Below are positions 1 to 32,025 of a DNA stretch of 64,000 bases, piece after piece. Position numbers and translations under genes: made by a program. How positions within the stretch are numbered: the stretch's first letter is position 1; each line of letters opens with the position of its first letter. The notes under the pieces are model-generated. The model was not told the DNA's origin and searched no databases. It saw only the letters and a program-made list of their open reading frames with translations. The stretch is from Escherichia coli (GTDB taxonomy: Bacteria > Pseudomonadota > Gammaproteobacteria > Enterobacterales > Enterobacteriaceae), in NCBI RefSeq assembly GCF_003991155.1, contig NZ_CP031294.1; one strand, 5' to 3'.

Positions 1-1198
1 AAAGATTGTCGTTAATTACACATTTTATCTTAGAAATAAACTCAGATTCATTGTCCTTGAATGAGTCACTAAAAATATCCCAAACATTGTTAACCTCACA
101 TAAAGCCTTGTGTTCTTTATATTGTTTATTTTTTTCTTCTATTATACCTCGAATATTGCTTTCAGTAGAAAGATAACCATTCTTGAGATAAAAATCTATG
201 TCATCATCGAAAGCAATTTCCGCTCGTTCATAAATAATATCAAGACTATTAATAAATGAATATACAGAATCATCCTTTTTATCATCTAACATGTAATCAA
301 ATACATGTATGTTTTTAATTGATTCTTTAAACAAGGCATAATCAACACCTGGAACACCAGAATAGTAAACCACTGAAAACAGAACCAATCTATTGATAAA
401 ACTTTCTCTAACCTTATCCTCTGCCAAGCTTAGCTCATTCCTAAGATTAACCAGAGATGTTTTTATTTTATTTAATATACGGATATTTTTAATGCCTAAG
501 TCATTTGCTAAGACTTTTAACAAAAGAAAATCAGAATCAGTTTCATAAAAAACTTTACGTAAGTTCTTCTCAGGCGTAGGATCGTATTTTATTTCGACAT
601 CAATTACTTTTTCTCTGTACTCTAAAAACTGTTTTTTTGCAGTTTCATCATGTAAATTATCTTCATTTAAAATTAGAACAACTTTGCAACCTTTTCTTCT
701 TGCTAATTCATCAATTACCCCCATAATTTCTTTAACTTCTAGCGAATTACCTTTTCTTTCAACATCATCAATACAAACCAAATAATTATTAACAAATTTA
801 TACTCAAGAGATGACAGCAGGTTATCTGTTTTGAACCCAAAAAAATCGTTCTTTCCGAAATGTATTAAAAATTTTGACAAGGAGTTGTATTTCAACCATC
901 CCCAAAACCCATTTCTATAACGAATCATAGTTCGATCCGTTTCAGATAAAATTAGTTCTTTATATTTCTTTTCATTAATTGGTGTGGCACAATGATAAAG
1001 AGTTTTTTTAATATCACCAATAGAGTTAACCCCAAACAAAGAAACATACGAATATGCATTAAAATCTAATCCTTCAGAATGCTTAGTATAAAAACTATTC
1101 CAATAATGAGTTTTACCAACGCCCCAATCTCCTTTTATGACGGCAACCCGATGATCTGAAACTAGAAAATTTTTTAGAAATGATTCTATCGATTCCAT
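1..1198 (-). CDS. KAP-family P-loop NTPase; N-terminus at 1198, C-terminus runs off the window start (partial)
   Basis: Hand translation of the minus strand from ATG 1198..1196 gives MESIESFLKNFLVSDHRVAVIKGDWGVGKTHYWNSFY... A Walker A of the G-x-W-G-x-G-K-T type sits near the N-terminus and a KAP-style Walker B LVCIDDVERK follows about 150 aa later. An AAGGA RBS lies 8 nt upstream. The frame stays open to position 1. The gene is very AT-rich compared with the neighbouring par genes. Confidence 0.55.
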   Translation of the reverse strand, partial: MESIESFLKNFLVSDHRVAVIKGDWGVGKTHYWNSFYTKHSEGLDFNAYSYVSLFGVNSIGDIKKTLYHCATPINEKKYKELILSETDRTMIRYRNGFWGWLKYNSLSKFLIHFGKNDFFGFKTDNLLSSLEYKFVNNYLVCIDDVERKGNSLEVKEIMGVIDELARRKGCKVVLILNEDNLHDETAKKQFLEYREKVIDVEIKYDPTPEKNLRKVFYETDSDFLLLKVLANDLGIKNIRILNKIKTSLVNLRNELSLAEDKVRESFINRLVLFSVVYYSGVPGVDYALFKESIKNIHVFDYMLDDKKDDSVYSFINSLDIIYERAEIAFDDDIDFYLKNGYLSTESNIRGIIEEKNKQYKEHKALCEVNNVWDIFSDSFKDNESEFISKIKCVINDNL

Positions 1199-1249
1199 TA
1201 GTATCAATCCTTTAATTCATATATTGGGCGTAACAAACGCCCAATATAA

Positions 1250-1609
1250 TCAACCTTTCTTCATCAACTCTCGTTTAATTTCATCGGTACGCATCGTAAC
1301 GTCGGCAGCTGTGATCGCCTCGTTAAGCTTCACGATGTCCTCGATTTCCTGCGGTGACTTCTCTGCCAGATGGAAAATGGCTGCTCGAATCACGTCAGAA
1401 CGAGTGAACTTCTCGAAGCGAGGGATGAACTTCATCATCTCCAGCAGTTCGAAGTATTCGTCTTCCAGTGACATTGTGCGGCTTTTAATTTTCTCTTTGC
1501 CACGAGTCGGGCGTCCCTGTGGTCTGACTGGTTGGCGCAAAGGAGTTGTGTTCTTAGCCGGTGCATCAGGCTCTTTGCGCTTTGCTAGGTCACCCATTTT
1601 CATGGACAT
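1250..1609 (-). CDS. ParG-like small centromere-binding protein (basic N-terminus, C-terminal ribbon-helix-helix-like region)
   Basis: The 119-aa ORF sits directly downstream of the ParA-type ATPase and overlaps it by one codon (ATGA-type coupling). The N-terminal tail is Lys/Arg/Pro-rich and the C-terminus is a short helical domain. This layout is typical of ParF/ParG type Ib partition cassettes. Confidence 0.5.
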   Translation of the reverse strand: MSMKMGDLAKRKEPDAPAKNTTPLRQPVRPQGRPTRGKEKIKSRTMSLEDEYFELLEMMKFIPRFEKFTRSDVIRAAIFHLAEKSPQEIEDIVKLNEAITAADVTMRTDEIKRELMKKG

Positions 1610-2277
1610 TATTCTTCTTCCTCCAGACTCAACAGATAATCTACAAATTCTTCAAACTCGGCTTCCGCCTTTTTGTCGCGCTCGTTACCGGTCATTTCAA
1701 AGATAGAACGACCAGACTCTTCCGCATCATCATAGACGTTGCGGTTATATAGATTGACTGGCGCAGACTCGATGCCAAACGTCTCAACAATCTCTTTAGC
1801 CGCCAGAATGCGAGACACTTGTGATGGCAAAGCCGGGCACTGGTTCATGACCGCGCGGACCTTCACTTTATCGTTTACATTACGAACATTGTCGATAATA
1901 GGATCAATGTCACGTAAAGATTTCAAATCACGACGCTTAGGACGCAGCGGGATAATGATAACGTCAGCCATCAGCATCGCTTGTCGCTGAATTTCGGAGT
2001 CGAAGCCACCAGCATCTACCACTACAAACTCAGCTCTACCCTGAAGCGATTTTAGGTGCTTAATGATGTCATCCTGAACGTATGCAAAAGGAATCAGCTC
2101 AAGGTCTTCGTTCTGTCGACGGTCTTCACACCAGCTCGTTGTCGTGCGCTGAATATCTATATCGGTAATATAAACCTTCTTCTTCTTTTTGACTTTCAGG
2201 CAAACGGCAATTTGCTGGGCAACGGTGGATTTGCCAGGCCCGCCCTTTGTGCCGCCAACCACAAAGATCTTGGTCAT
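1609..2277 (-). CDS. parA: ParA/ParF-family partition ATPase (deviant Walker A)
   Basis: The N-terminus reads MTKIFVVGGTKGGPGKSTVAQQIA, a deviant Walker A of the KGGxGKS/T type. The size is 222 aa. An acidic C-terminus and a downstream small DNA-binding partner complete the pattern. Confidence 0.85.
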   Translation of the reverse strand: MTKIFVVGGTKGGPGKSTVAQQIAVCLKVKKKKKVYITDIDIQRTTTSWCEDRRQNEDLELIPFAYVQDDIIKHLKSLQGRAEFVVVDAGGFDSEIQRQAMLMADVIIIPLRPKRRDLKSLRDIDPIIDNVRNVNDKVKVRAVMNQCPALPSQVSRILAAKEIVETFGIESAPVNLYNRNVYDDAEESGRSIFEMTGNERDKKAEAEFEEFVDYLLSLEEEE

Positions 2278-2312
2278 TGGAGAGTTCCCTTTGCGTATAT
2301 AATTATCGTCTG

Positions 2313-2325
2313 AAACAACTTGTTT
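2313..2325. promoter_or_regulatory. Palindrome AAACAACTTGTTT followed by TTCTTAT, 36 bp upstream of the parA start. Same family as the island operators.
   Basis: Direct reading gives tataattatcgtctgAAACAACTTGTTTtcttatatg. Other copies are at 41013, 42249, 43152, 46268, 46318, 59090 and 59819. Confidence 0.45.
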
Positions 2326-2453
2326 TCTTATATGTGATATAGCCTAAATGCCTACGGCTGTGGTGTAAAGGTTAAATGGTAGGTGCTGCCTTAGAATTTT
2401 TAGGCGAGAATTAATGGCTGTTAACAAAAAAGGCGACCAAAGTCGCCTGATTT

Positions 2454-3206
2454 TTAATCTTTTAGGTATAAACCTACTGGAGTTCTTGTTTTGCGGGAGA
2501 TGATAAGTACGATAAATTTCTGAACGTTAACTTGCACTTTGTTTGGGAGCCAAGAGCTTAACTCTGCATCAAGCAACAATCCTCTGTTCCACGGCAAAAA
2601 TCCGGTTTCTTTCCCCATCCCGTACTCACCTAACACATCTTCGAACGTTTCTGTTTTGGCATTGTATATACGCACATCGCCGGTTCGCATGAGAGGCCCT
2701 GCCCAGATCTTAGCACCAGGAATGGTTTGTGTATCGTCGCAGACTAAATGCTCATACCAATGAAGAAGAAAGAGATAGGTACGGTGACACAATCCTCGCT
2801 GACGACGCTCTCTGACAGTTTCGACACCAGCTACCTGGTAACATTCGATCTCATTACCGTCTTCAACAAAACTATATTCACGCAGAGCTATCCTACCAGC
2901 GATCGTATTTTTGTTTTCGTCCAGAAGCCCGGACTGGAGCACCTCTTTGATAATCTCTTCTTCAGGGGCATCTTCATCCGCTCGATCTAAGATGAATTCG
3001 CTCAGGTCGCCTTGGTCGCGCGCACCTACACGTTCCATAGAGACATACAGGCAAATGTCATCTTCTGGTTCAATGATTTCAATTTCTGAGATTTTATAGA
3101 GGTAGGCTTCATTGATAAGAAAGCCAAAACGAACAACACGAGTCTCCCCTTTATGAGGAAACTCGCTTAGATCTTTTGAATATGCGCTATCTAGTGTAGG
3201 AGCCAT
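2454..3206 (-). CDS. hypothetical protein (250 aa)
   Basis: Long minus-strand ORF in the operon between the lysis genes and parA. No recognisable motif. Confidence 0.45.
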   Translation of the reverse strand: MAPTLDSAYSKDLSEFPHKGETRVVRFGFLINEAYLYKISEIEIIEPEDDICLYVSMERVGARDQGDLSEFILDRADEDAPEEEIIKEVLQSGLLDENKNTIAGRIALREYSFVEDGNEIECYQVAGVETVRERRQRGLCHRTYLFLLHWYEHLVCDDTQTIPGAKIWAGPLMRTGDVRIYNAKTETFEDVLGEYGMGKETGFLPWNRGLLLDAELSSWLPNKVQVNVQKFIVLIISRKTRTPVGLYLKD

Positions 3207-3574
3207 TTTGTAGCAGAATCATCAGCCTTAACCGTGCTGACAATGCTACCATGATTGCGTAAGAAGCGGCGAATAGAATGTTCAATAACCTCCGAAAAAG
3301 CCTCGATAAAACGAGACAGCTCAGGGTACTGTTTAGCTGGCTTGACTACAAAACGAACACGACCATTCAGGTAAATTGCTTCAGCTAATGGCTTCACGCT
3401 TGCACCAGCGCGCTCAACATCGTCTTTGAAGGTAACGATGAAGCGTGAGTCTTCCGGTTCAATAGCGTCATTATTGAGCTTACGTACTTCAAGCTTGTGC
3501 TGATTCAGCACATGAGTCTCGATAATACTCGTGCAATCGCGAATAGTTTGTATAGAACGTTTCTCGTTCAGCAT
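3191..3574 (-). CDS. hypothetical protein (127 aa)
   Basis: Minus-strand ORF that overlaps the next gene by 16 nt, which suggests translational coupling. No recognisable motif. Confidence 0.4.
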   Translation of the reverse strand: MLNEKRSIQTIRDCTSIIETHVLNQHKLEVRKLNNDAIEPEDSRFIVTFKDDVERAGASVKPLAEAIYLNGRVRFVVKPAKQYPELSRFIEAFSEVIEHSIRRFLRNHGSIVSTVKADDSATKWLLH

Positions 3575-3798
3575 GTGTCCACCTTAGCCGTTAACACAAG
3601 TGTCATTGCGGCACCCCTCTCGGGGTTGAAGGCTACGAGGATGCGTAGCCTGTATGTGCCCACTTACGTGGATGCCTAATAAATCTACATCAAATTACTA
3701 AATGATTCAACATGAGCTTGAGTGAACAGGCGTGTATATGAGTGAAGATGCCATCTTTAGGATAAAAGGTAAACTGAGACCACTCATCAATCATCGCC

Positions 3799-4026
3799 TC
3801 AGTTCAGGTGCCCCCACTCACACAGCCTTTCACCTATCGTATTGTGGATAAGCAACTGTCGCTCCGTTTCCTCAGTCATAAAATCCTCTCTACTCACATA
3901 GATAGGATTTGCAGCATCGCAGAATAGCACGCCTGGAGCCTGCGTCTTAATCACGCACCCATTTATCAAGCAGCTCGCGATGAACACCAGAGGCATCTTT
4001 TTGCCGCACTTCATTAACCGTTTCAT
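3799..4026 (-). CDS. Rz1-like o-spanin candidate embedded in, and extending past, the Rz-like gene in another frame
   Basis: The alternative-frame ORF encodes ...MKRLMKCGKKMPLVFIASCLINGCV..., a lipobox-like IASC after a short signal sequence. An embedded or overlapping arrangement is typical of Rz/Rz1. The start is chosen by eye. Confidence 0.3.
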   Translation of the reverse strand: MKRLMKCGKKMPLVFIASCLINGCVIKTQAPGVLFCDAANPIYVSREDFMTEETERQLLIHNTIGERLCEWGHLN

Positions 4027-4198
4027 TTTTGACATCCACTGTGCTTTGAAGTCGTTTTCTGTCTTCCTGTTTTGCCTTCTCTTCCATTGCTCGTCGCGCC
4101 GCATTTCCGCCCATCGTGTAAGCGCCGACAAGAACGAAAAGAACGGCAGCCAGCGTAATCAAAGCAACTTTTAGCTTTGTCATCAGGCTGCCTAGCAT
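3947..4198 (-). CDS. Rz-like i-spanin candidate (N-terminal TM helix plus charged coiled-coil)
   Basis: The 83-aa product reads MLGSLMTKLKVALITLAAVLFVLVGAYTMGG... followed by a K/E/R-rich helix. The gene is adjacent to the other lysis genes. Confidence 0.45.
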   Translation of the reverse strand: MLGSLMTKLKVALITLAAVLFVLVGAYTMGGNAARRAMEEKAKQEDRKRLQSTVDVKNETVNEVRQKDASGVHRELLDKWVRD

Positions 4199-4199
4199 A

Positions 4200-4919
4200 T
4201 TAGACCATCCCTTTCTGGTGTCTTCTTACCTGCGACCAGGCGATAAATCCAGCCACAACAATAGTGGCAATACCGAAGATGATGCGTACTGTATCCCCGC
4301 TAGAGATATGACCTTGTGCTTTATCCATAGCAGCGGAAACCTGCGGCATAACATCGGCCAGCTGCGCCAGACCAATACCTGCTGTAACAGTTGCGCCAGC
4401 GGTTTCTTTAGTTACAGGAACAGCCTTCACGGTTTTCACCGGCTTAACGACGCCAGCTCGACGCAGACCTTCCTCAATAACTTCTGCCGCATACCAGGTG
4501 TTCAGCGTTTTTAGTGGACCTCGACCATTCTCGTGGCGAATGATTGCCTCAACCAAAGGTCGAAGGATGTCGTAATCATGCAGATCGATGATCATGTCTG
4601 CGGTTACACCAACGGCTTTAGACACCTCATTAATGTAGGCGTCAGTGTTGTTTTCATTCGGCGGTGCCCAACGTTCAATAACTTCACGAATGGTATCGAT
4701 ACTTGAGCCGTCTTTTGCGCGACGTTTGTCGTGGTAGGTAATTAGAGTCACCGCCAGCGCACGAATCCCCCAAACAGGGTCTTTAAACGTGCAAAAGCGC
4801 GGTTCGTCTGGATTCGCAACCAGACCTTGCCACGGTGATCCTTTATCAAGATTACCGGGGTTATTATTACGAATGCCTCTCGGAGTCTTCATCCTTGATC
4901 TCCTGTTATTGCAGTCCAC
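4200..4919 (-). CDS. putative endolysin/lysis protein with a C-terminal transmembrane anchor
   Basis: The 239-aa product has an N-terminal motif GIRNNNPGNL and a hydrophobic C-terminal segment IIFGIATIVVAGFIAWSQV. It lies between the holin-like and spanin-like genes. Catalytic class not assigned from sequence. Confidence 0.45.
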   Translation of the reverse strand: MDCNNRRSRMKTPRGIRNNNPGNLDKGSPWQGLVANPDEPRFCTFKDPVWGIRALAVTLITYHDKRRAKDGSSIDTIREVIERWAPPNENNTDAYINEVSKAVGVTADMIIDLHDYDILRPLVEAIIRHENGRGPLKTLNTWYAAEVIEEGLRRAGVVKPVKTVKAVPVTKETAGATVTAGIGLAQLADVMPQVSAAMDKAQGHISSGDTVRIIFGIATIVVAGFIAWSQVRRHQKGMV

Positions 4920-5241
4920 TTTTTACGCCATACGCGGCTAACCCCAAAAGCAGTGCGGTAATAATGAACGACGTTATTTTAGAAACAATGCCGCCAAAGA
5001 ACCCACTTGAGATGGAATCTAACCGGTTAAGGAGTTTGTCCAGATTGGAGTGTTGAATACTATGTTGCGCCGGGGTCATATCACCAAAGTAGGTTTTCAG
5101 CTGATCATTGACCTCCTGGCCAATTTCTTCACGTAGCTCTTTACCTAATTTGCCAACAACCTCCCGAGCAACGATCGCGGCAATACGCTCAACTTGCTCT
5201 GTTGTAACGCCCGCCATCTCGTTCGACATGTTTTCCTCCAT
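4906..5241 (-). CDS. holin-like small membrane protein (single C-terminal TM)
   Basis: The 111-aa product is charged and helical at the N-terminus and ends ...ITSFIITALLLGLAAYGVKSGLQ. It is the first gene of the lysis cassette and overlaps the next gene by 14 nt. Confidence 0.35.
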   Translation of the reverse strand: MEENMSNEMAGVTTEQVERIAAIVAREVVGKLGKELREEIGQEVNDQLKTYFGDMTPAQHSIQHSNLDKLLNRLDSISSGFFGGIVSKITSFIITALLLGLAAYGVKSGLQ

Positions 5242-5431
5242 GAAAAGTCAAATCGGGATGGCGGATTTATATCACACTTCTCCTTTCAATTATAGGTATA
5301 TACTTACCTACCTATGCATATACCGTTTAACGGCTGTTCAAATTCGTATCTAGTAACTCACTAATATATCCCTATGATTGCGGCTGTGAGATCGCATTTT
5401 AAACCTCACAGCCATATAAATAATGTCTAAA

Positions 5432-8400
5432 TCAGTTACTTGTTGCCCCAACAGTACCTGCAAATTTCAGCCATTGACCTGACGGACTTCTATTACTACG
5501 GTAATGATAAACGAGGATTGCGTTTGTAACTCCACCGTAGTCAGCTTTATGTGACGTTGTTAAACGAATTGTATAATCACCGTTAGGTAGATTAAAAACT
5601 TCGATTATAGATTCTGCTAATTCTACAGCACCAAATCCCGTTATATTGTTGATACTGCCAGCATTGAATCCCATAGCATCGCCAAAGCCAATCCAATAAC
5701 TTTTGCTAAACGCCCCATTTGATTTTAGGTGGCTAATGAATGTGGACAAACTCATGCCCATATCCCCACCTGAAACAGAGGAAGTTCGCACAGTCATACT
5801 TGGAAGAGCACTGCTCTTCACATAGGAACTTAGAAGGTTTGTTACCTCTGTTTTCGTATAGGCATTAAGGTTAGCCGCAGTCAAAGTAATATCGGCAGAG
5901 CCATCAAACGCCACACCAGCAATTTTCCTTGCTGTCTGCAATTTTGTGGCAGTGGCAGCATTACCAGTAGTGTTCTGATTACCGGTTGTATTCACACCAG
6001 GTATTGAATCCTTAGCGGTATATACCTGCGCCCACGCAGACCATGCCGCATCAGTGGTATCTCTTCGGGAGCGAATGAAAACCGGCGCATGTGCACCGCT
6101 CGTACCACTCCAGCCAATAAGCAACTCGCCCTCACCAGCAGCACTCGCACCTTTCATGTGCAATACGTTGCCATACGTGGTCGGGTAGCTATTGCTGTAC
6201 GCCTCGTACATTTGAATGCCAGCAGTACCTTGAGCAGAACCGCTTAACGCCGTAACTCGGCCACGAGATACCAATGTATTAATGTTGATATCGCCTGAGC
6301 CATCAAACTTAACACCATTGATGTTTCTCGCTGTTTGCAACTTCGTAGCTGTTGAAGCATTACCGTTCAAACTACCATTTACGCCACCAGTCACATTTAG
6401 TCCATTACCAATTGATACAGCACCGCTGGTATTATTAATTGTAATAGGTCGCAAACCGTTCCATGAACCTAATGTGTCTCCTGATGCTGTTAGCATGAAA
6501 TATGTGTTCGATCCATCATTACGGATAAAGAACCCAAAGCTACCGTAAGCAATGCGGAAACCATTTGCATATTTTGAAATGATCTCGCCAGAAGATGTCA
6601 AACCTCCAGATAATGTACCACCGGTAAGAGGTAATGCACCGACATCAGAGGCTGTTGGTTTGTTTTTCGTGTTATATACTCTTCGCCATCCTGGAGAATA
6701 ATCTGTGCCATTAAATACATAGATAAACTCCGCATTAGTGAGAGCACCAGAGACACTCGTCGTTGTGGCCGTTGTTATACGGATCGTATAATTGTTTGAG
6801 CTACTACCGTTATTAAATACCTCTATAACAGCTCCTGCCAATGGAATAACGCCACAACCAGTTTCACTATTTGGTATGGTTGCACTATTGGCATAGGCCC
6901 ACGCACATCGAGCAATCCATGACTTTGTGTTAAATGCTCCATTATTTTGCAATAACGTCACTAACTGTGCTGTTGTTATTGCTCCGCCATTACTTCCTGT
7001 AGTTAACCAACCAGTAGGAGATGCCGGGCAACCTATATTTGCTGGCGACAAGGAAATATTTGCCGAGCCGTCAAACGACACCCCATTAATAGTACGCGCA
7101 GTCTGCAACTTCGTAGCAGTAGCCGCGTTGCCCGTTGTATTCTGATTACCAGTCGTATTAACACCTGGCAAATTAATATTCGCAGTACCATCAAAGCTCA
7201 CGCCGCCGATAGTTCTTGCCGTCTGAAGTTTTGTAGCAGTTGCAGCATTACCAGTGGTGTTCTGATTACCCGTAGTATTTACACCTGGAAGGTTGATATT
7301 TGCAGAACCGTCGAAACCAACTCCACCGATAGATCTTGCCGTCTGCAATTTCGTGGCTGTACTTGCATTACCATTCAATGAACCAGTTAATCCACCTGTA
7401 ACAGACAACGGACCTGAAACTGTTCCTCCGGTTGTTGGCAGTGCTCCAATATCTGATGGTGTAGGTTTCTGATGTGAGCTATACATCGTATAAACAACAC
7501 CATCGGTAACGCTGGAAGGCTTACTCGCTGAATATGTTGGCGAGGTATAAATAGAAACTGTCGCATTTGCAGTACAATCCCAATGGATATTTACACGAGT
7601 CGCATAATTGCCAATCTCAACGTAAATATCATATGTATCGCCGGATGTGTTGATCCAGGCGAAATTCGTTAATCCGACAGCTGTACGCTTCCACAAAGCA
7701 CCTGTAATCCCTTTGGGGTTTCCATTGCCTGCTCGTAGAACCAGTTCTGAAATGCCTGCCTGATGTGGGGAGCCGACGTTGTAACCAGCGCCACCAATCA
7801 ATGCGATGTAAACGATGGAACTCGCTTGTGGCATGGTAACCGTAGCCAGTTTGAACCACCCTGCCCCGCCAGAGAAAGACATCGTTACTGAATTTAAAGT
7901 ACCAATATCTTTCGGCGTTAATGTGATATCCGCAGTCAGTGCTTTACCGTTAACTTTTCGGTTAGATGGCACCCTGCTATTCGCATTGTCATTGGCTGCT
8001 TTAACTGCTTTTGGCGTTGCGGCCAGCGATTCACTGGTGCTGTCGACAGCACTGCTAAGTTTCACAACACCTTTAGTTGTAAGGCTTGCGTCTTCCATCG
8101 CAACTGCACCGGCAATCTCTTCAGCACGATCAGCAGCAGCTTCCGCACGGGTCGCAGCGGATTCAGCAGCAGTTTTGCTCTGAGATGCTGCCGTCGCACT
8201 GCCTGCCGCCTCTGTTGCTTTCGTGGATGCCGTCGTGGCACTGCCCTTCGCTGCTGACGCCTGTCTGGTCGCCTCATCTTTTGAAGCAGACGCAGATGAT
8301 GCCGATGACGCCGCCGAACTGGCGGACGATGCGGCAGCCGTTTTTGAGGATTCTGCGCTGGTTTCCGACGCTTTCGCGTTCGTTTCGGATGTCTTCGCTG

Positions 8401-9460
8401 CGGAAGCAGACCTCGCTGCTGCGCTGGCCTGTTCAGTGGCTTCGCCAGCCTTCGTTGTGGCTGTTGAAGCAGACGATGCGGCACTTTCTGCCGATTTTCC
8501 GGCGGCGGTGGCACTGGCTGAGGCCTGCCCGGCACTTGTTGACGCGGCACTGGCAGACGACGCAGCCGCTGTTTTTGAGCCTGCCGCAGCTGAGGCACTC
8601 TGTGCTGCTGCCGTCTCAGAAGACTTAGCGTTCGTCTCGGACGTTTTTGCCGCCTTCGCGGAATTGCCTGCCGCTGTTGCCGAGGAGGCTGCACTACTGG
8701 CGCTCAAGGATGCGTTCGTTTCTGATGATTTCGCTGCCTCTTTTGAGGCCGCCGCATCCCGGACTGAGGTGGCAGCTTCTGACGCTTTCGTGGTCGCGGT
8801 GGATGCAGAAGTGGCTGCTGATTGTTGTGACGCTGCGGCATTCGTTTCAGATTTTTTCGCAGCAGTTGCACTCGCACTTGCGGCACTTTGTGAGGATGCC
8901 GCAGCGGATGCACTTTGAGACGCTTGAGAGGCTTTTTCTCCAGCGGTATTGGCGCTTTCTGCTGCTGCGGCAGCACTGGCCGCCGCCTCACGAGCTTTGT
9001 CGCCAGCAGCATCAATCGCGTCAGTGTTATTTTTATACCACTCAACGTTTTCGTTGTGCTCGTTGACGATCTGCATTAGCGGCTTAACGGTTACTTCTGT
9101 ACCGTCTTCACGCTCGATTGTCACCTCATCCAGAGCAGTCAACCAACTGCGCATAGACTTGGAATCAGCCGACATACGCGACATTAGTGCTGTAAAGCGC
9201 GCGCTAAACTGTGTTAAGTCGCCTTCATAGGTCGTAATGATTCGGCACGGAACCTCAGACTGAGTTTCGCCGGTATAAGGTTCTGAGAGAACAATATTCG
9301 TATCGCTTATTACGCGCTTGATCTCATACAGCTTATTGTCGGGGCCAATGACGATCATCCCCGGCAACACACCATTAGCTGTTACGTTCCAGGCTGTCCC
9401 TGCCCCAACCAGAGTATTGCTACCCTGTGTAAATGTGATAGTACCTTCCCTGTACCACAT
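5432..9460 (-). CDS. stf: side tail fibre, lambda Stf-like. It has an Ala/Ser-rich low-complexity rod, five copies of the NASTATKLQTAR-x-I-x-GV-x-FDGS repeat and two related C-terminal-type modules.
   Basis: The 1342-aa product contains the stretch KKSETNAAASQQSAATSASTATTKASEAATSVRDAAASKEAAKSSETNAS..., which closely resembles the lambda Stf middle region. The motif GVNTTGNQNTTGNAATATKLQTAR recurs five times. Confidence 0.85.
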   Translation of the reverse strand: MWYREGTITFTQGSNTLVGAGTAWNVTANGVLPGMIVIGPDNKLYEIKRVISDTNIVLSEPYTGETQSEVPCRIITTYEGDLTQFSARFTALMSRMSADSKSMRSWLTALDEVTIEREDGTEVTVKPLMQIVNEHNENVEWYKNNTDAIDAAGDKAREAAASAAAAAESANTAGEKASQASQSASAAASSQSAASASATAAKKSETNAAASQQSAATSASTATTKASEAATSVRDAAASKEAAKSSETNASLSASSAASSATAAGNSAKAAKTSETNAKSSETAAAQSASAAAGSKTAAASSASAASTSAGQASASATAAGKSAESAASSASTATTKAGEATEQASAAARSASAAKTSETNAKASETSAESSKTAAASSASSAASSASSASASKDEATRQASAAKGSATTASTKATEAAGSATAASQSKTAAESAATRAEAAADRAEEIAGAVAMEDASLTTKGVVKLSSAVDSTSESLAATPKAVKAANDNANSRVPSNRKVNGKALTADITLTPKDIGTLNSVTMSFSGGAGWFKLATVTMPQASSIVYIALIGGAGYNVGSPHQAGISELVLRAGNGNPKGITGALWKRTAVGLTNFAWINTSGDTYDIYVEIGNYATRVNIHWDCTANATVSIYTSPTYSASKPSSVTDGVVYTMYSSHQKPTPSDIGALPTTGGTVSGPLSVTGGLTGSLNGNASTATKLQTARSIGGVGFDGSANINLPGVNTTGNQNTTGNAATATKLQTARTIGGVSFDGTANINLPGVNTTGNQNTTGNAATATKLQTARTINGVSFDGSANISLSPANIGCPASPTGWLTTGSNGGAITTAQLVTLLQNNGAFNTKSWIARCAWAYANSATIPNSETGCGVIPLAGAVIEVFNNGSSSNNYTIRITTATTTSVSGALTNAEFIYVFNGTDYSPGWRRVYNTKNKPTASDVGALPLTGGTLSGGLTSSGEIISKYANGFRIAYGSFGFFIRNDGSNTYFMLTASGDTLGSWNGLRPITINNTSGAVSIGNGLNVTGGVNGSLNGNASTATKLQTARNINGVKFDGSGDININTLVSRGRVTALSGSAQGTAGIQMYEAYSNSYPTTYGNVLHMKGASAAGEGELLIGWSGTSGAHAPVFIRSRRDTTDAAWSAWAQVYTAKDSIPGVNTTGNQNTTGNAATATKLQTARKIAGVAFDGSADITLTAANLNAYTKTEVTNLLSSYVKSSALPSMTVRTSSVSGGDMGMSLSTFISHLKSNGAFSKSYWIGFGDAMGFNAGSINNITGFGAVELAESIIEVFNLPNGDYTIRLTTSHKADYGGVTNAILVYHYRSNRSPSGQWLKFAGTVGATSN

Positions 9461-31966: not shown

Positions 31967-31981
31967 ATAAGTTACTTATTA
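31967..31981. promoter_or_regulatory. perfect palindrome AATAAGTTACTTATT upstream of the terminase genes
   Basis: Read directly, in the AT-rich gap between the 88-aa gene and the small terminase gene. Confidence 0.45.
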
Positions 31982-32025
31982 TTTATATATACAGATGCAG
32001 GTCTTTAAATAAGCTCCCAGACCGA

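Follow-up and report, generated by a model that had tools for sequence, protein, structure and literature searches.

A KAP-family P-loop NTPase gene as exchangeable cargo, and candidate single-gene immunity, beside the partition genes of an SSU5/pHCM2-like phage-plasmid

What role could an AT-rich gene for a KAP-family P-loop NTPase play next to the partition genes of a phage-plasmid? This question is raised by the left end of a 64,000-nucleotide stretch of Escherichia coli DNA (contig NZ_CP031294.1 of assembly GCF_003991155.1; hereafter the window), where the first 1,198 positions carry the 5' part of such a gene (product WP_000443723.1; hereafter the KAP gene). The element is an SSU5/pHCM2-like E. 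coli/Shigella phage-plasmid; the window region is 100% identical to E. coli plasmids of ~110 kb (including NZ_OW849379.1, NZ_AP027572.1, NZ_CP029421.1 and NZ_AP025215.1) and 99.5% identical to "Escherichia phage CMS-2020a", and pHCM2 of Salmonella Typhi as well as many Klebsiella plasmids have this backbone, too. An earlier note on this DNA had located the gene beside a partition cassette, and we confirm it as a stand-alone, compositionally foreign insert beside parA and the gene of a ParG-like protein (parG below). Our analysis establishes that the KAP gene is exchangeable cargo in a slot that extends from the parG stop codon to a conserved terminator hairpin 5' of the replication module. We consider it likely that the gene provides single-gene immunity against phages (or other mobile genetic elements, MGEs), which would protect the lysogen and so the phage-plasmid. 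The evidence points to anti-phage cargo because sister elements carry defence genes in the same slot and because homologues occur in mobile and defence-associated contexts; on sequence comparison, the homologous NTPase domain shared with the validated defence protein Reve supports this reading.

An exchangeable slot between parG and the replication module

On the minus strand, window positions 2-1198 translate into 399 codons free of stops, starting with an ATG at 1198-1196; this open frame (1..1198), which matches Pfam PF07693 and phrog_4740, represents the 5' 1,197 nt (codons 1-399 of 564) of the KAP gene, the remaining 165 codons and the stop lying left of the window edge. Records that are 100% identical to window positions 1-5400 extend it, in agreement with the earlier note, which had placed the C-terminus outside the window and had suggested extending the contig, to an intact full-length open reading frame (ORF) of 564 aa annotated as "P-loop NTPase fold protein". 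A pseudogene or truncation is thus ruled out. The gene has its own ribosome-binding site (RBS), as had been read before, in the form of a Shine-Dalgarno element (AAGGA, 1208..1212, minus strand) 9 nt 5' of the ATG. Its AT-richness relative to the partition genes was likewise borne out, with a GC content of 0.293 over positions 1-1198 versus 0.46 for the whole window and 0.47-0.49 for parA/parG; the AT-rich block of ~1.75 kb coincides exactly with the KAP gene, and GC is again ~0.49 on either side. Compared with the 1,695-nt gene, two copies differ in length by one nucleotide, namely NZ_CP053233.1 31049-32744 (1,696 nt, with a split annotation) and CP022461.1 50764-52457 of Shigella sonnei (1,694 nt, unannotated), reflecting either frameshift decay or sequencing errors.

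The flank opposite to the partition genes is a replication module consisting of a primase, a DnaB-like helicase and a phrog_2500 protein. When the interval from the phrog_2500 gene to parA was used as a query against the plasmid records of PLSDB, 730 records proved to share at least part of the flanks, and the KAP gene was present in 22 of these 730 (22 of about 250 E. coli/Shigella elements). In the E. coli sister elements that carry other cargo, the identity of the flanks within the aligned half of the query is 94-98% (mostly ~97%). The boundaries of the slot were derived from an alignment of seven elements. On the partition side, homology starts exactly at the parG stop codon, placing the right end of the cassette at ~1249/1250. 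On the replication side, homology continues through a hairpin with a 17-bp stem (GACCTGCTTCCGTATA...TATACAGAAGCAGGTC), located just left of the window (L001 8440-8495; ~31970-32025 in NZ_AP025215.1), and ends directly after it. This hairpin (folding energy dG -28.7 kcal/mol, z -7.9), with UUUC following on the cargo-gene strand, is kept in phage-plasmids of E. coli and Klebsiella and in pHCM2. It is a probable terminator of the par/cargo transcript but could also be a recombination or regulatory site. In the literature searched, the interval from the parG stop to the terminator appears undescribed as a cargo slot.

The 51-nt spacer between parG and the KAP gene (1199-1249) contains a cassette-specific GC-rich hairpin (1221..1247) with a perfect 10-bp stem (arms 1221-1230 and 1238-1247) and a 7-nt loop, the RNA fold of which has a dG of -19.8 kcal/mol and z = -3.65. 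The earlier note's description of a hairpin-bounded spacer thus stands as far as the perfect 10-bp inverted repeat is concerned; as an intrinsic terminator the hairpin is unsupported, there being no U-tract and no call by the terminator scan. Every alternative cargo brings its own, different short GC-rich hairpin after the parG stop, which makes the hairpin-bounded spacer a general feature of the slot. In a Klebsiella phage-plasmid, the same slot is filled by a KAP homologue of 40% identity, and the order of stop, hairpin, RBS and ATG is kept. Its annotated start (NZ_CP140291.1; L009 2243-4006) overlaps parG and the post-parG hairpin and is probably ~15 codons too far upstream, a downstream AGGAG and ATG providing a better fit. 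Our scan for a sigma-70 promoter of the gene's own found none convincing, the sole minus-strand prediction overlapping the start codon. Transcription would probably proceed by read-through from the parA-parG operon over the weak spacer hairpin and end at the conserved U-tract hairpin.

The other occupants of the slot were characterized by profile matches, and their abundance is given as the number of plasmid records with the respective gene at any location. A 255-aa GIY-YIG protein (136 plasmid records) matches PD-T4-3 (E 1e-23), and a 390-aa protein, which is accompanied by a DUF2971 protein (11 records), matches PD-T7-5 (E 2e-139). Both are defence systems, credited to Vassallo et al. 2022 in PMC10952713, and both were reported for E. 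coli/Shigella SSU5-group elements by a DefenseFinder survey of clinical phage-plasmids that mentions neither the KAP gene nor a hotspot (bioRxiv 10.1101/2025.09.12.675607). A third occupant, a 251-aa DUF2971 protein (26 records), matches PADLOC candidate PDC-S31 (E 1e-40), a candidate of the same sort as PDC-S49 (see below). The fourth, a 352-aa protein present in 139 plasmid records (27 of them in Escherichia), gave no defence match, and neither Pfam nor PADLOC recognized it; it is possibly a further candidate for defence. The gene for this protein (L006 1331-2389, plus strand; L010 2070-3125, plus strand) is found in Klebsiella, Salmonella, E. coli and Citrobacter, including pHCM2.

Homologues of the KAP gene were also located in other genomes. 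In Salmonella integrative and conjugative elements (ICEs) they occupy a comparable slot of the transfer region, flanked by a DtrJ-like gene and a RAQPRD gene, which looks like a defence hotspot. In ICEs of this type (L018 1783-3466; L017 5094-7387) the homologue is in one case found beside AbiEi/AbiEii, and on a related ICE contig beside a reverse transcriptase (RVT_1) with an AAA_21 ATPase and a SymE toxin. The Shewanella homologue is three genes from an OLD-family nuclease, the one in Oleispira lies in a variable stretch near an IS66 element and a T5orf172 gene, and those in Pragia and Vreelandella are solitary inserts amid housekeeping genes. No conserved partner gene emerged across the loci examined, the homologues being always solitary. 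The gene exceeds its surroundings in AT content in each of the seven contexts checked (gene GC 0.27-0.42), for example with a GC of 0.31 versus 0.53 in the Salmonella ICE and 0.27 versus 0.44 in Pragia. In the phage collection, a single record carries the KAP gene, itself a phage-plasmid, and other phages have only distant KAP-domain proteins. Overall, the setting among defence genes or prophage morons that the earlier note had proposed is backed by context, that is, by PD-T7-5 and PD-T4-3 in the same slot and by AbiE, the reverse transcriptase and ATPase, and OLD next to homologues.

Family, structure and relatives of the KAP protein

The assignment to KAP-family P-loop NTPases, made earlier from motifs together with the advice to run a KAP_NTPase profile search, is upheld by Pfam PF07693, which scores 25.6 bits with the window part and 24.8 bits with the full-length protein (gathering cut-off 20 bits), covers aa 12-254 and matches 38 of 39 family homologues (best E 6.8e-14); GxWGxGKT and DDxER are, moreover, common to the protein and to PifA of plasmid F. 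The only other Pfam matches are AAA_22 and a weak STAND, and the NCBIfam scan gave no match for the protein, which rules out a housekeeping ATPase. A full-length match was obtained to phrog_4740 (E 7e-166), annotated as of unknown function. The KAP NTPase domain (aa 1-254; window 437..1198, minus strand) comprises a P-loop core and a helical lid. Both motifs reported by the earlier note were read in it, namely Walker A with its Trp (GDWGVGKT, aa 23-30; 1109..1132, minus strand) and a KAP-type Walker B (CIDDVERK, aa 142-149; 752..775, minus strand), the latter aligning with MDDLDR of PifA and IIDDLER of Reve. They are not a matter of chance, since the key residues (G23, W25, G26, G28, K29, T30, C142, D144, D145, E147 and R148) are invariant in the 39 homologues, which are 27-77% identical. 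The same alignment revealed further invariant residues (W33, the YSYxSLFG strand, Y139, N178, Y194-R-E-K197 and N238-x-R240) and three within the C-terminal region (G341, W504 and R557).

In the AlphaFold2 model, built from the 39 sequences (mean pLDDT, the predicted local distance difference score, of 84), the alpha/beta P-loop core with its helical lid is interrupted by a disordered insert and followed by an all-helical C-terminal region. The ATPase core of this predicted structure resembles ORC, Cdc6, TnsC, RdrA and NLR proteins, the best structural matches being Cdc6/ORC AAA+ initiators and TnsC, with the human ORC ATPase module on top. The C-terminal region (aa 255-564, of which aa 255-399 correspond to 2..436, minus strand) gave no Pfam, PDB-sequence or fold match; it is presumed to be a specificity or sensor region. 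The insert located between the two Walker motifs (aa 97-126; 821..910, minus strand) is variable (20% mean identity) and modelled with low confidence (pLDDT <50). In classic KAP proteins, transmembrane (TM) helices are found at the corresponding position, and TM helices in or next to the NTPase domain are typical of many prokaryotic members of the family, albeit not universal. Here the insert is rich in aromatic residues and too low in hydrophobicity for a membrane span. In fact, no TM segment was found anywhere in the protein (the top 19-residue Kyte-Doolittle mean is 1.35), and a TM-anchored KAP is ruled out by hydropathy. PifA and Reve, with top values of 1.27 and 1.22, are both TM-less, and among the 39 homologues a single one reaches 1.6, outside the insert. 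The TM segments and the hydrophobic insert whose absence the earlier note had regarded as a warning sign are therefore indeed missing, as they are in PifA and Reve; the housekeeping match and the pseudogene of which it had also warned were not found. The protein, which we take to be cytosolic, belongs to a TM-less subgroup that is still inside the KAP family.

A word-indexed search yielded 1,588 matches, among them full-length relatives of ~575 aa (30-44% identical) on Klebsiella and Salmonella contigs of phage-plasmid size and on Salmonella chromosomes, as well as in Pragia, Shewanella, Pseudomonas-group bacteria, Oleispira and Desulfobacterales. In an exhaustive profile search over 1.84 billion cluster representatives, 6,704 proteins were found at E<=1e-3 and 1,655 at E<=1e-30 (clusters at 50% identity), and the top matches are nearly all 540-600 aa long, with alignments that span their whole length. 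The family (~570 aa) is large, has a fixed architecture and includes no characterized member. The mean identity to the query is 39% for aa 1-96, 50% for aa 131-254, 20% for the insert and 25-28% for the C-terminal region, which on these figures is, apart from the insert, the fastest-evolving part of the protein. A similar gradient separates the two E. coli alleles. The second allele (P0032), carried by four plasmid records (NZ_CP031136.1, NZ_CP020118.1, AP026520.1 and MF554642.1), has 83.6% nucleotide identity to the window allele (P0001), with 90-96% identity over aa 1-250 versus 56-64% over aa 351-564. The allele is a mosaic, which suggests that the C-terminal domain was replaced or has rapidly diverged. 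A fast-evolving, mosaic C-terminus is as expected of a specificity domain.

The prediction that foreign DNA is the target of KAP NTPases dates from 2004 (cited in PMC13552941). Among the tested KAP NTPases, the closest relative found by sequence comparison is Reve, a single-gene defence from hotspots of P4-like satellites, which lowers plaquing of Drexlerviridae to 2.5e-6 (up to ~10^5-10^6-fold), leaves lambda unaffected and is reported to protect against Drexlerviridae and/or Siphoviridae (bioRxiv 10.64898/2026.02.27.708500, the supplement of which was our source of the sequence). Both proteins are products of single genes with a GC of ~0.30 (0.297 for Reve), are of similar length (586 aa for Reve and 564 aa here) and have a TM-less KAP NTPase at the N-terminus, where Walker A is found at residue 26 and 23, respectively. 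The motifs in common are GxWGVGKT, YxSxxGxNSx, DDxER, xxEKVIxxEI and xNIRIxN, which in Reve include GEWGVGKT, IIDDLER, HKEKVISDEI and ETNIRIINRV. Both match Pfam KAP (21.1 bits for Reve) and, at the N-terminus only, PADLOC PDC-S49; both have the ORC ATPase module as the top structural match, which for Reve is the human module according to the Foldseek search of its authors (bioRxiv 10.64898/2026.02.27.708500); and both are located in cargo hotspots of mobile elements from E. coli. When Reve was compared with the family profile, hhalign gave 95.8% probability (E 8e-9) over 206 columns of the NTPase domain only, and hmmsearch --max gave 17.8 bits. On the other hand, identity between the NTPase domains is only ~25%, the C-terminal regions (~330 aa) show no alignable similarity, the carriers differ (a P4 satellite versus an SSU5-like phage-plasmid), and of the two only Reve has a measured phenotype, against Drexlerviridae. 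On this comparison the two appear related by architecture and not orthologous.

A likeness in architecture connects the protein to the EF_KAP class, stand-alone KAP NTPases with a region of ~300 aa devoid of known domains that defend Enterococcus faecalis by a mechanism other than abortive infection, for which both the Walker B motif and the C-terminal region are required (PLoS Biology 2026, PMC13552941). Here too a KAP domain (aa 1-254) precedes a large domain-less region (aa 255-564), so that the KAP protein adds to an already known class, that of KAP NTPases fused to a C-terminal region without known domain. EF_KAP differs in having two TM helices, an origin in Firmicutes and a linkage to a small serine recombinase, whereas our protein is TM-less and has no recombinase neighbour. 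A parallel in genomic setting is PifA of plasmid F, a TM-less KAP protein that excludes or aborts T7 infection (PMC13001434). Both are plasmid-borne TM-less KAP NTPases encoded near plasmid maintenance genes, and both share GxWGxGKT and DDxxR, PifA having GAWGSGKT and MDDLDR at the aligned positions. PifA is longer (741 aa), is paired with the repressor PifC and has another C-terminus. Homology is marginal, with a BLASTP E of 0.08 for 17 aligned residues and an hhalign probability of 41% for the 72 columns surrounding Walker B. Orthology was rejected, as was a PifA/PifC system, the neighbours being parG and the phrog_2500 gene and not pifC.

Membership of other systems was considered and dismissed. 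The N-terminal 220 residues match PDC-S49 (E 2e-22 to 5e-22), yet of the 624 profile positions only 8-214, those of the NTPase domain, are aligned, the C-terminal two-thirds being different; PDC-S49 is itself only a computational candidate for a single-gene system, and no mention of it was found in the literature searched. QatA is a KAP NTPase within the four-gene system QatABCD, and no genes for QatB, QatC (QueC-like) or QatD (TatD) are present at any locus examined. For STAND/Avs proteins, nSTAND3 scores 16-17.3 bits, under the cut-off of 27.2, and with Walker A at residue 23 there is no room for an N-terminal effector domain. RdrA of RADAR differs in that no RdrB partner is found beside the KAP gene.

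Weighing the possible functions

If the KAP gene indeed confers anti-phage immunity, analogy with Reve, EF_KAP and PifA would suggest that the variable C-terminal helical region recognizes a phage component, upon which nucleotide binding and hydrolysis at the Walker A and B sites may drive the conformational or oligomeric switch of an ORC- or STAND-like ATPase; the switched ATPase would block phage replication or infection, by acting itself on phage DNA or protein complexes or, alternatively, via a host partner. A broader and considerably more tentative proposal, which we would rate as possible though doubtful, has two parts. The family of ~570-aa TM-less KAP proteins, together with Reve and PDC-S49-like ones, might constitute a widespread form of effector-less single-protein immunity, in which the effector is the ORC/Cdc6-like ATPase itself, which could for example clamp or remodel intermediates of phage replication or packaging in a nucleotide-dependent manner, and in which a swappable C-terminal helical domain sets the phage specificity. 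The slot, in turn, might be an undescribed exchange site for defence cassettes, the cargo of which is expressed as the tail of the partition operon, thereby coupling immunity to maintenance.

Several observations weigh against a role in defence. No phenotype is on record for any member of this KAP family, and what the protein has in common with Reve, PDC-S49 and PifA is restricted to the NTPase domain, so that neither specificity nor mechanism can be transferred from them. The protein is without any recognizable effector domain; no nuclease, protease or pore domain could be discerned. No defence signature is seen in the 352-aa protein, which often occupies the slot, and hence the slot need not be all defensive. 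Finally, the promoter scan gave no convincing promoter for the KAP gene itself, its AT-rich composition could mean silencing by H-NS, and the few copies that differ by one nucleotide in length may indicate decay.

These last points (very low GC, no clear promoter of its own, two records with copies one nucleotide longer or shorter) would also be accounted for by silent or decaying selfish cargo without a current function, such as an AT-rich gene silenced by H-NS. We regard this as very unlikely in view of an ORF that is intact and at least 98% identical in many records, one cluster alone (a variant with a name from S. sonnei) being present on 928 contigs, and of catalytic residues that do not vary within the family, which counts 1,655 clusters (50% identity); the intact ORF and the invariant residues together form a pattern indicative of purifying selection. 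The gene shares its strand with the partition operon and the replication module, between which it lies, and follows parG after 51 nt. This position could instead point to an accessory maintenance or replication factor, for instance an initiator of the ORC/Cdc6 type, a helicase loader or a partition helper that acts together with ParA/ParG or the adjacent DnaB-like helicase, and the best structural matches (Cdc6/ORC AAA+ initiators, TnsC) would be in line with such a role. Its composition is, however, foreign (GC 0.31 versus 0.49), the ORC-like match covers a generic ATPase core only, neither a sequence match nor a winged-helix domain having been found, and homologues reside in transfer regions of ICEs and in chromosomal islands devoid of par or rep genes. 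The gene is missing from more than 90% of the related phage-plasmids with identical ParA/ParG and near-identical flanks, which have unrelated genes instead. Identical ParA (WP_000161228.1) and ParG-like (WP_160378290.1) proteins are found both with the KAP gene and with other cargos, the latter protein being the same beside the KAP cargo and beside the PD-T4-3 cargo. Partition, therefore, does not need the KAP gene, which accordingly was rejected as a required partner of a type Ib ParA/ParG pair, and a maintenance function as a whole appears highly improbable.

Another alternative is that the protein is directed at competing mobile elements and not at lytic phages, for instance by exclusion of other phage-plasmids or conjugative plasmids or by addiction and stabilization of its carrier. 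Such a role would suit a gene that is found on a phage-plasmid and within the transfer regions of ICEs; QatA, another KAP NTPase, binds DNA, and in Klebsiella cured of an SSU5-like plasmid both phage plaquing and plasmid uptake went up, an effect not assigned to a gene (PMC8969562). We still judge it unlikely, as the tested relatives Reve, EF_KAP and PifA all act on phages, the identifiable co-occupants of the slot match PD-T7-5 and PD-T4-3, listed as phage-defence systems, and nothing specific indicates plasmid targets. The least probable option is a counter-defence or host-takeover factor serving the lytic cycle of the phage-plasmid. Variable slots of temperate phages do hold anti-defence genes as well, and SSU5-group elements carry the Rad anti-retron system; yet many homologues occur in non-phage contexts (ICEs, chromosomal islands), no similarity to known anti-defence proteins was found, and architecture and motifs match those of validated defence KAP proteins. 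Anti-phage immunity, with the reservations listed above, thus remains the reading that we favour.

Neighbouring features and significance

The partition genes next to the slot encode a ParG-like small protein of 117-119 aa (1250..1609, minus strand; phrog_5111, E 1e-78), which matches NCBIfam aCcr1_fam only weakly (E 2e-4) and well under the cut-off, and a small ParA partition ATPase of 222 aa (1609..2277, minus strand; NF041546 ParA_partition, E 2e-33; Pfam MipZ, AAA_31 and CbiA; ParA-like phrog_164). A second variable slot lies beyond parA at window positions 2278-3946 (compare L001 11278-12562). In the window it holds ORFs of 250 aa (2454-3206) and 127 aa (3191-3574), both on the minus strand and with no Pfam or PADLOC match; in NZ_AP025215.1 it holds a DUF1778/GNAT toxin-antitoxin pair, and in the Klebsiella and pHCM2 elements an ORF of ~185 aa on the plus strand. 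Further along, a tail-fibre ORF of 1,342 aa (5432-9460, minus strand) contains a long Ala/Ser-rich low-complexity stretch, in which GC reaches 0.62 around 8200-8800, and several copies of a 'NTTGNQNTTGNAATATKLQTAR...DGS' repeat unit. No tRNA genes and no Rfam matches were found in the window.

To a specialist, the existence of a KAP gene on such an element would come as no surprise; its appeal lies in the ease of cheap testing, in its abundance on elements from clinical Shigella and E. coli and in the fact that standard defence annotation misses it. Clinical E. coli, Shigella sonnei, Salmonella Typhi and Klebsiella commonly carry SSU5-like phage-plasmids. Provided that phages are indeed blocked by the gene, it would represent a trait of lysogenic conversion that standard tools do not flag (the DefenseFinder survey did not list it), with relevance to phage therapy against these pathogens. 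The sharply bounded slot beside parG offers a simple place to seek further defence genes, for example the one for the 352-aa protein, and natural pairs of alleles with a conserved N-terminus and a diverged C-terminus could be used for mapping specificity. Should the proposed immunity function hold true, a large family of 1,655 clusters would join the newly recognized class of KAP-NTPase immunity proteins.

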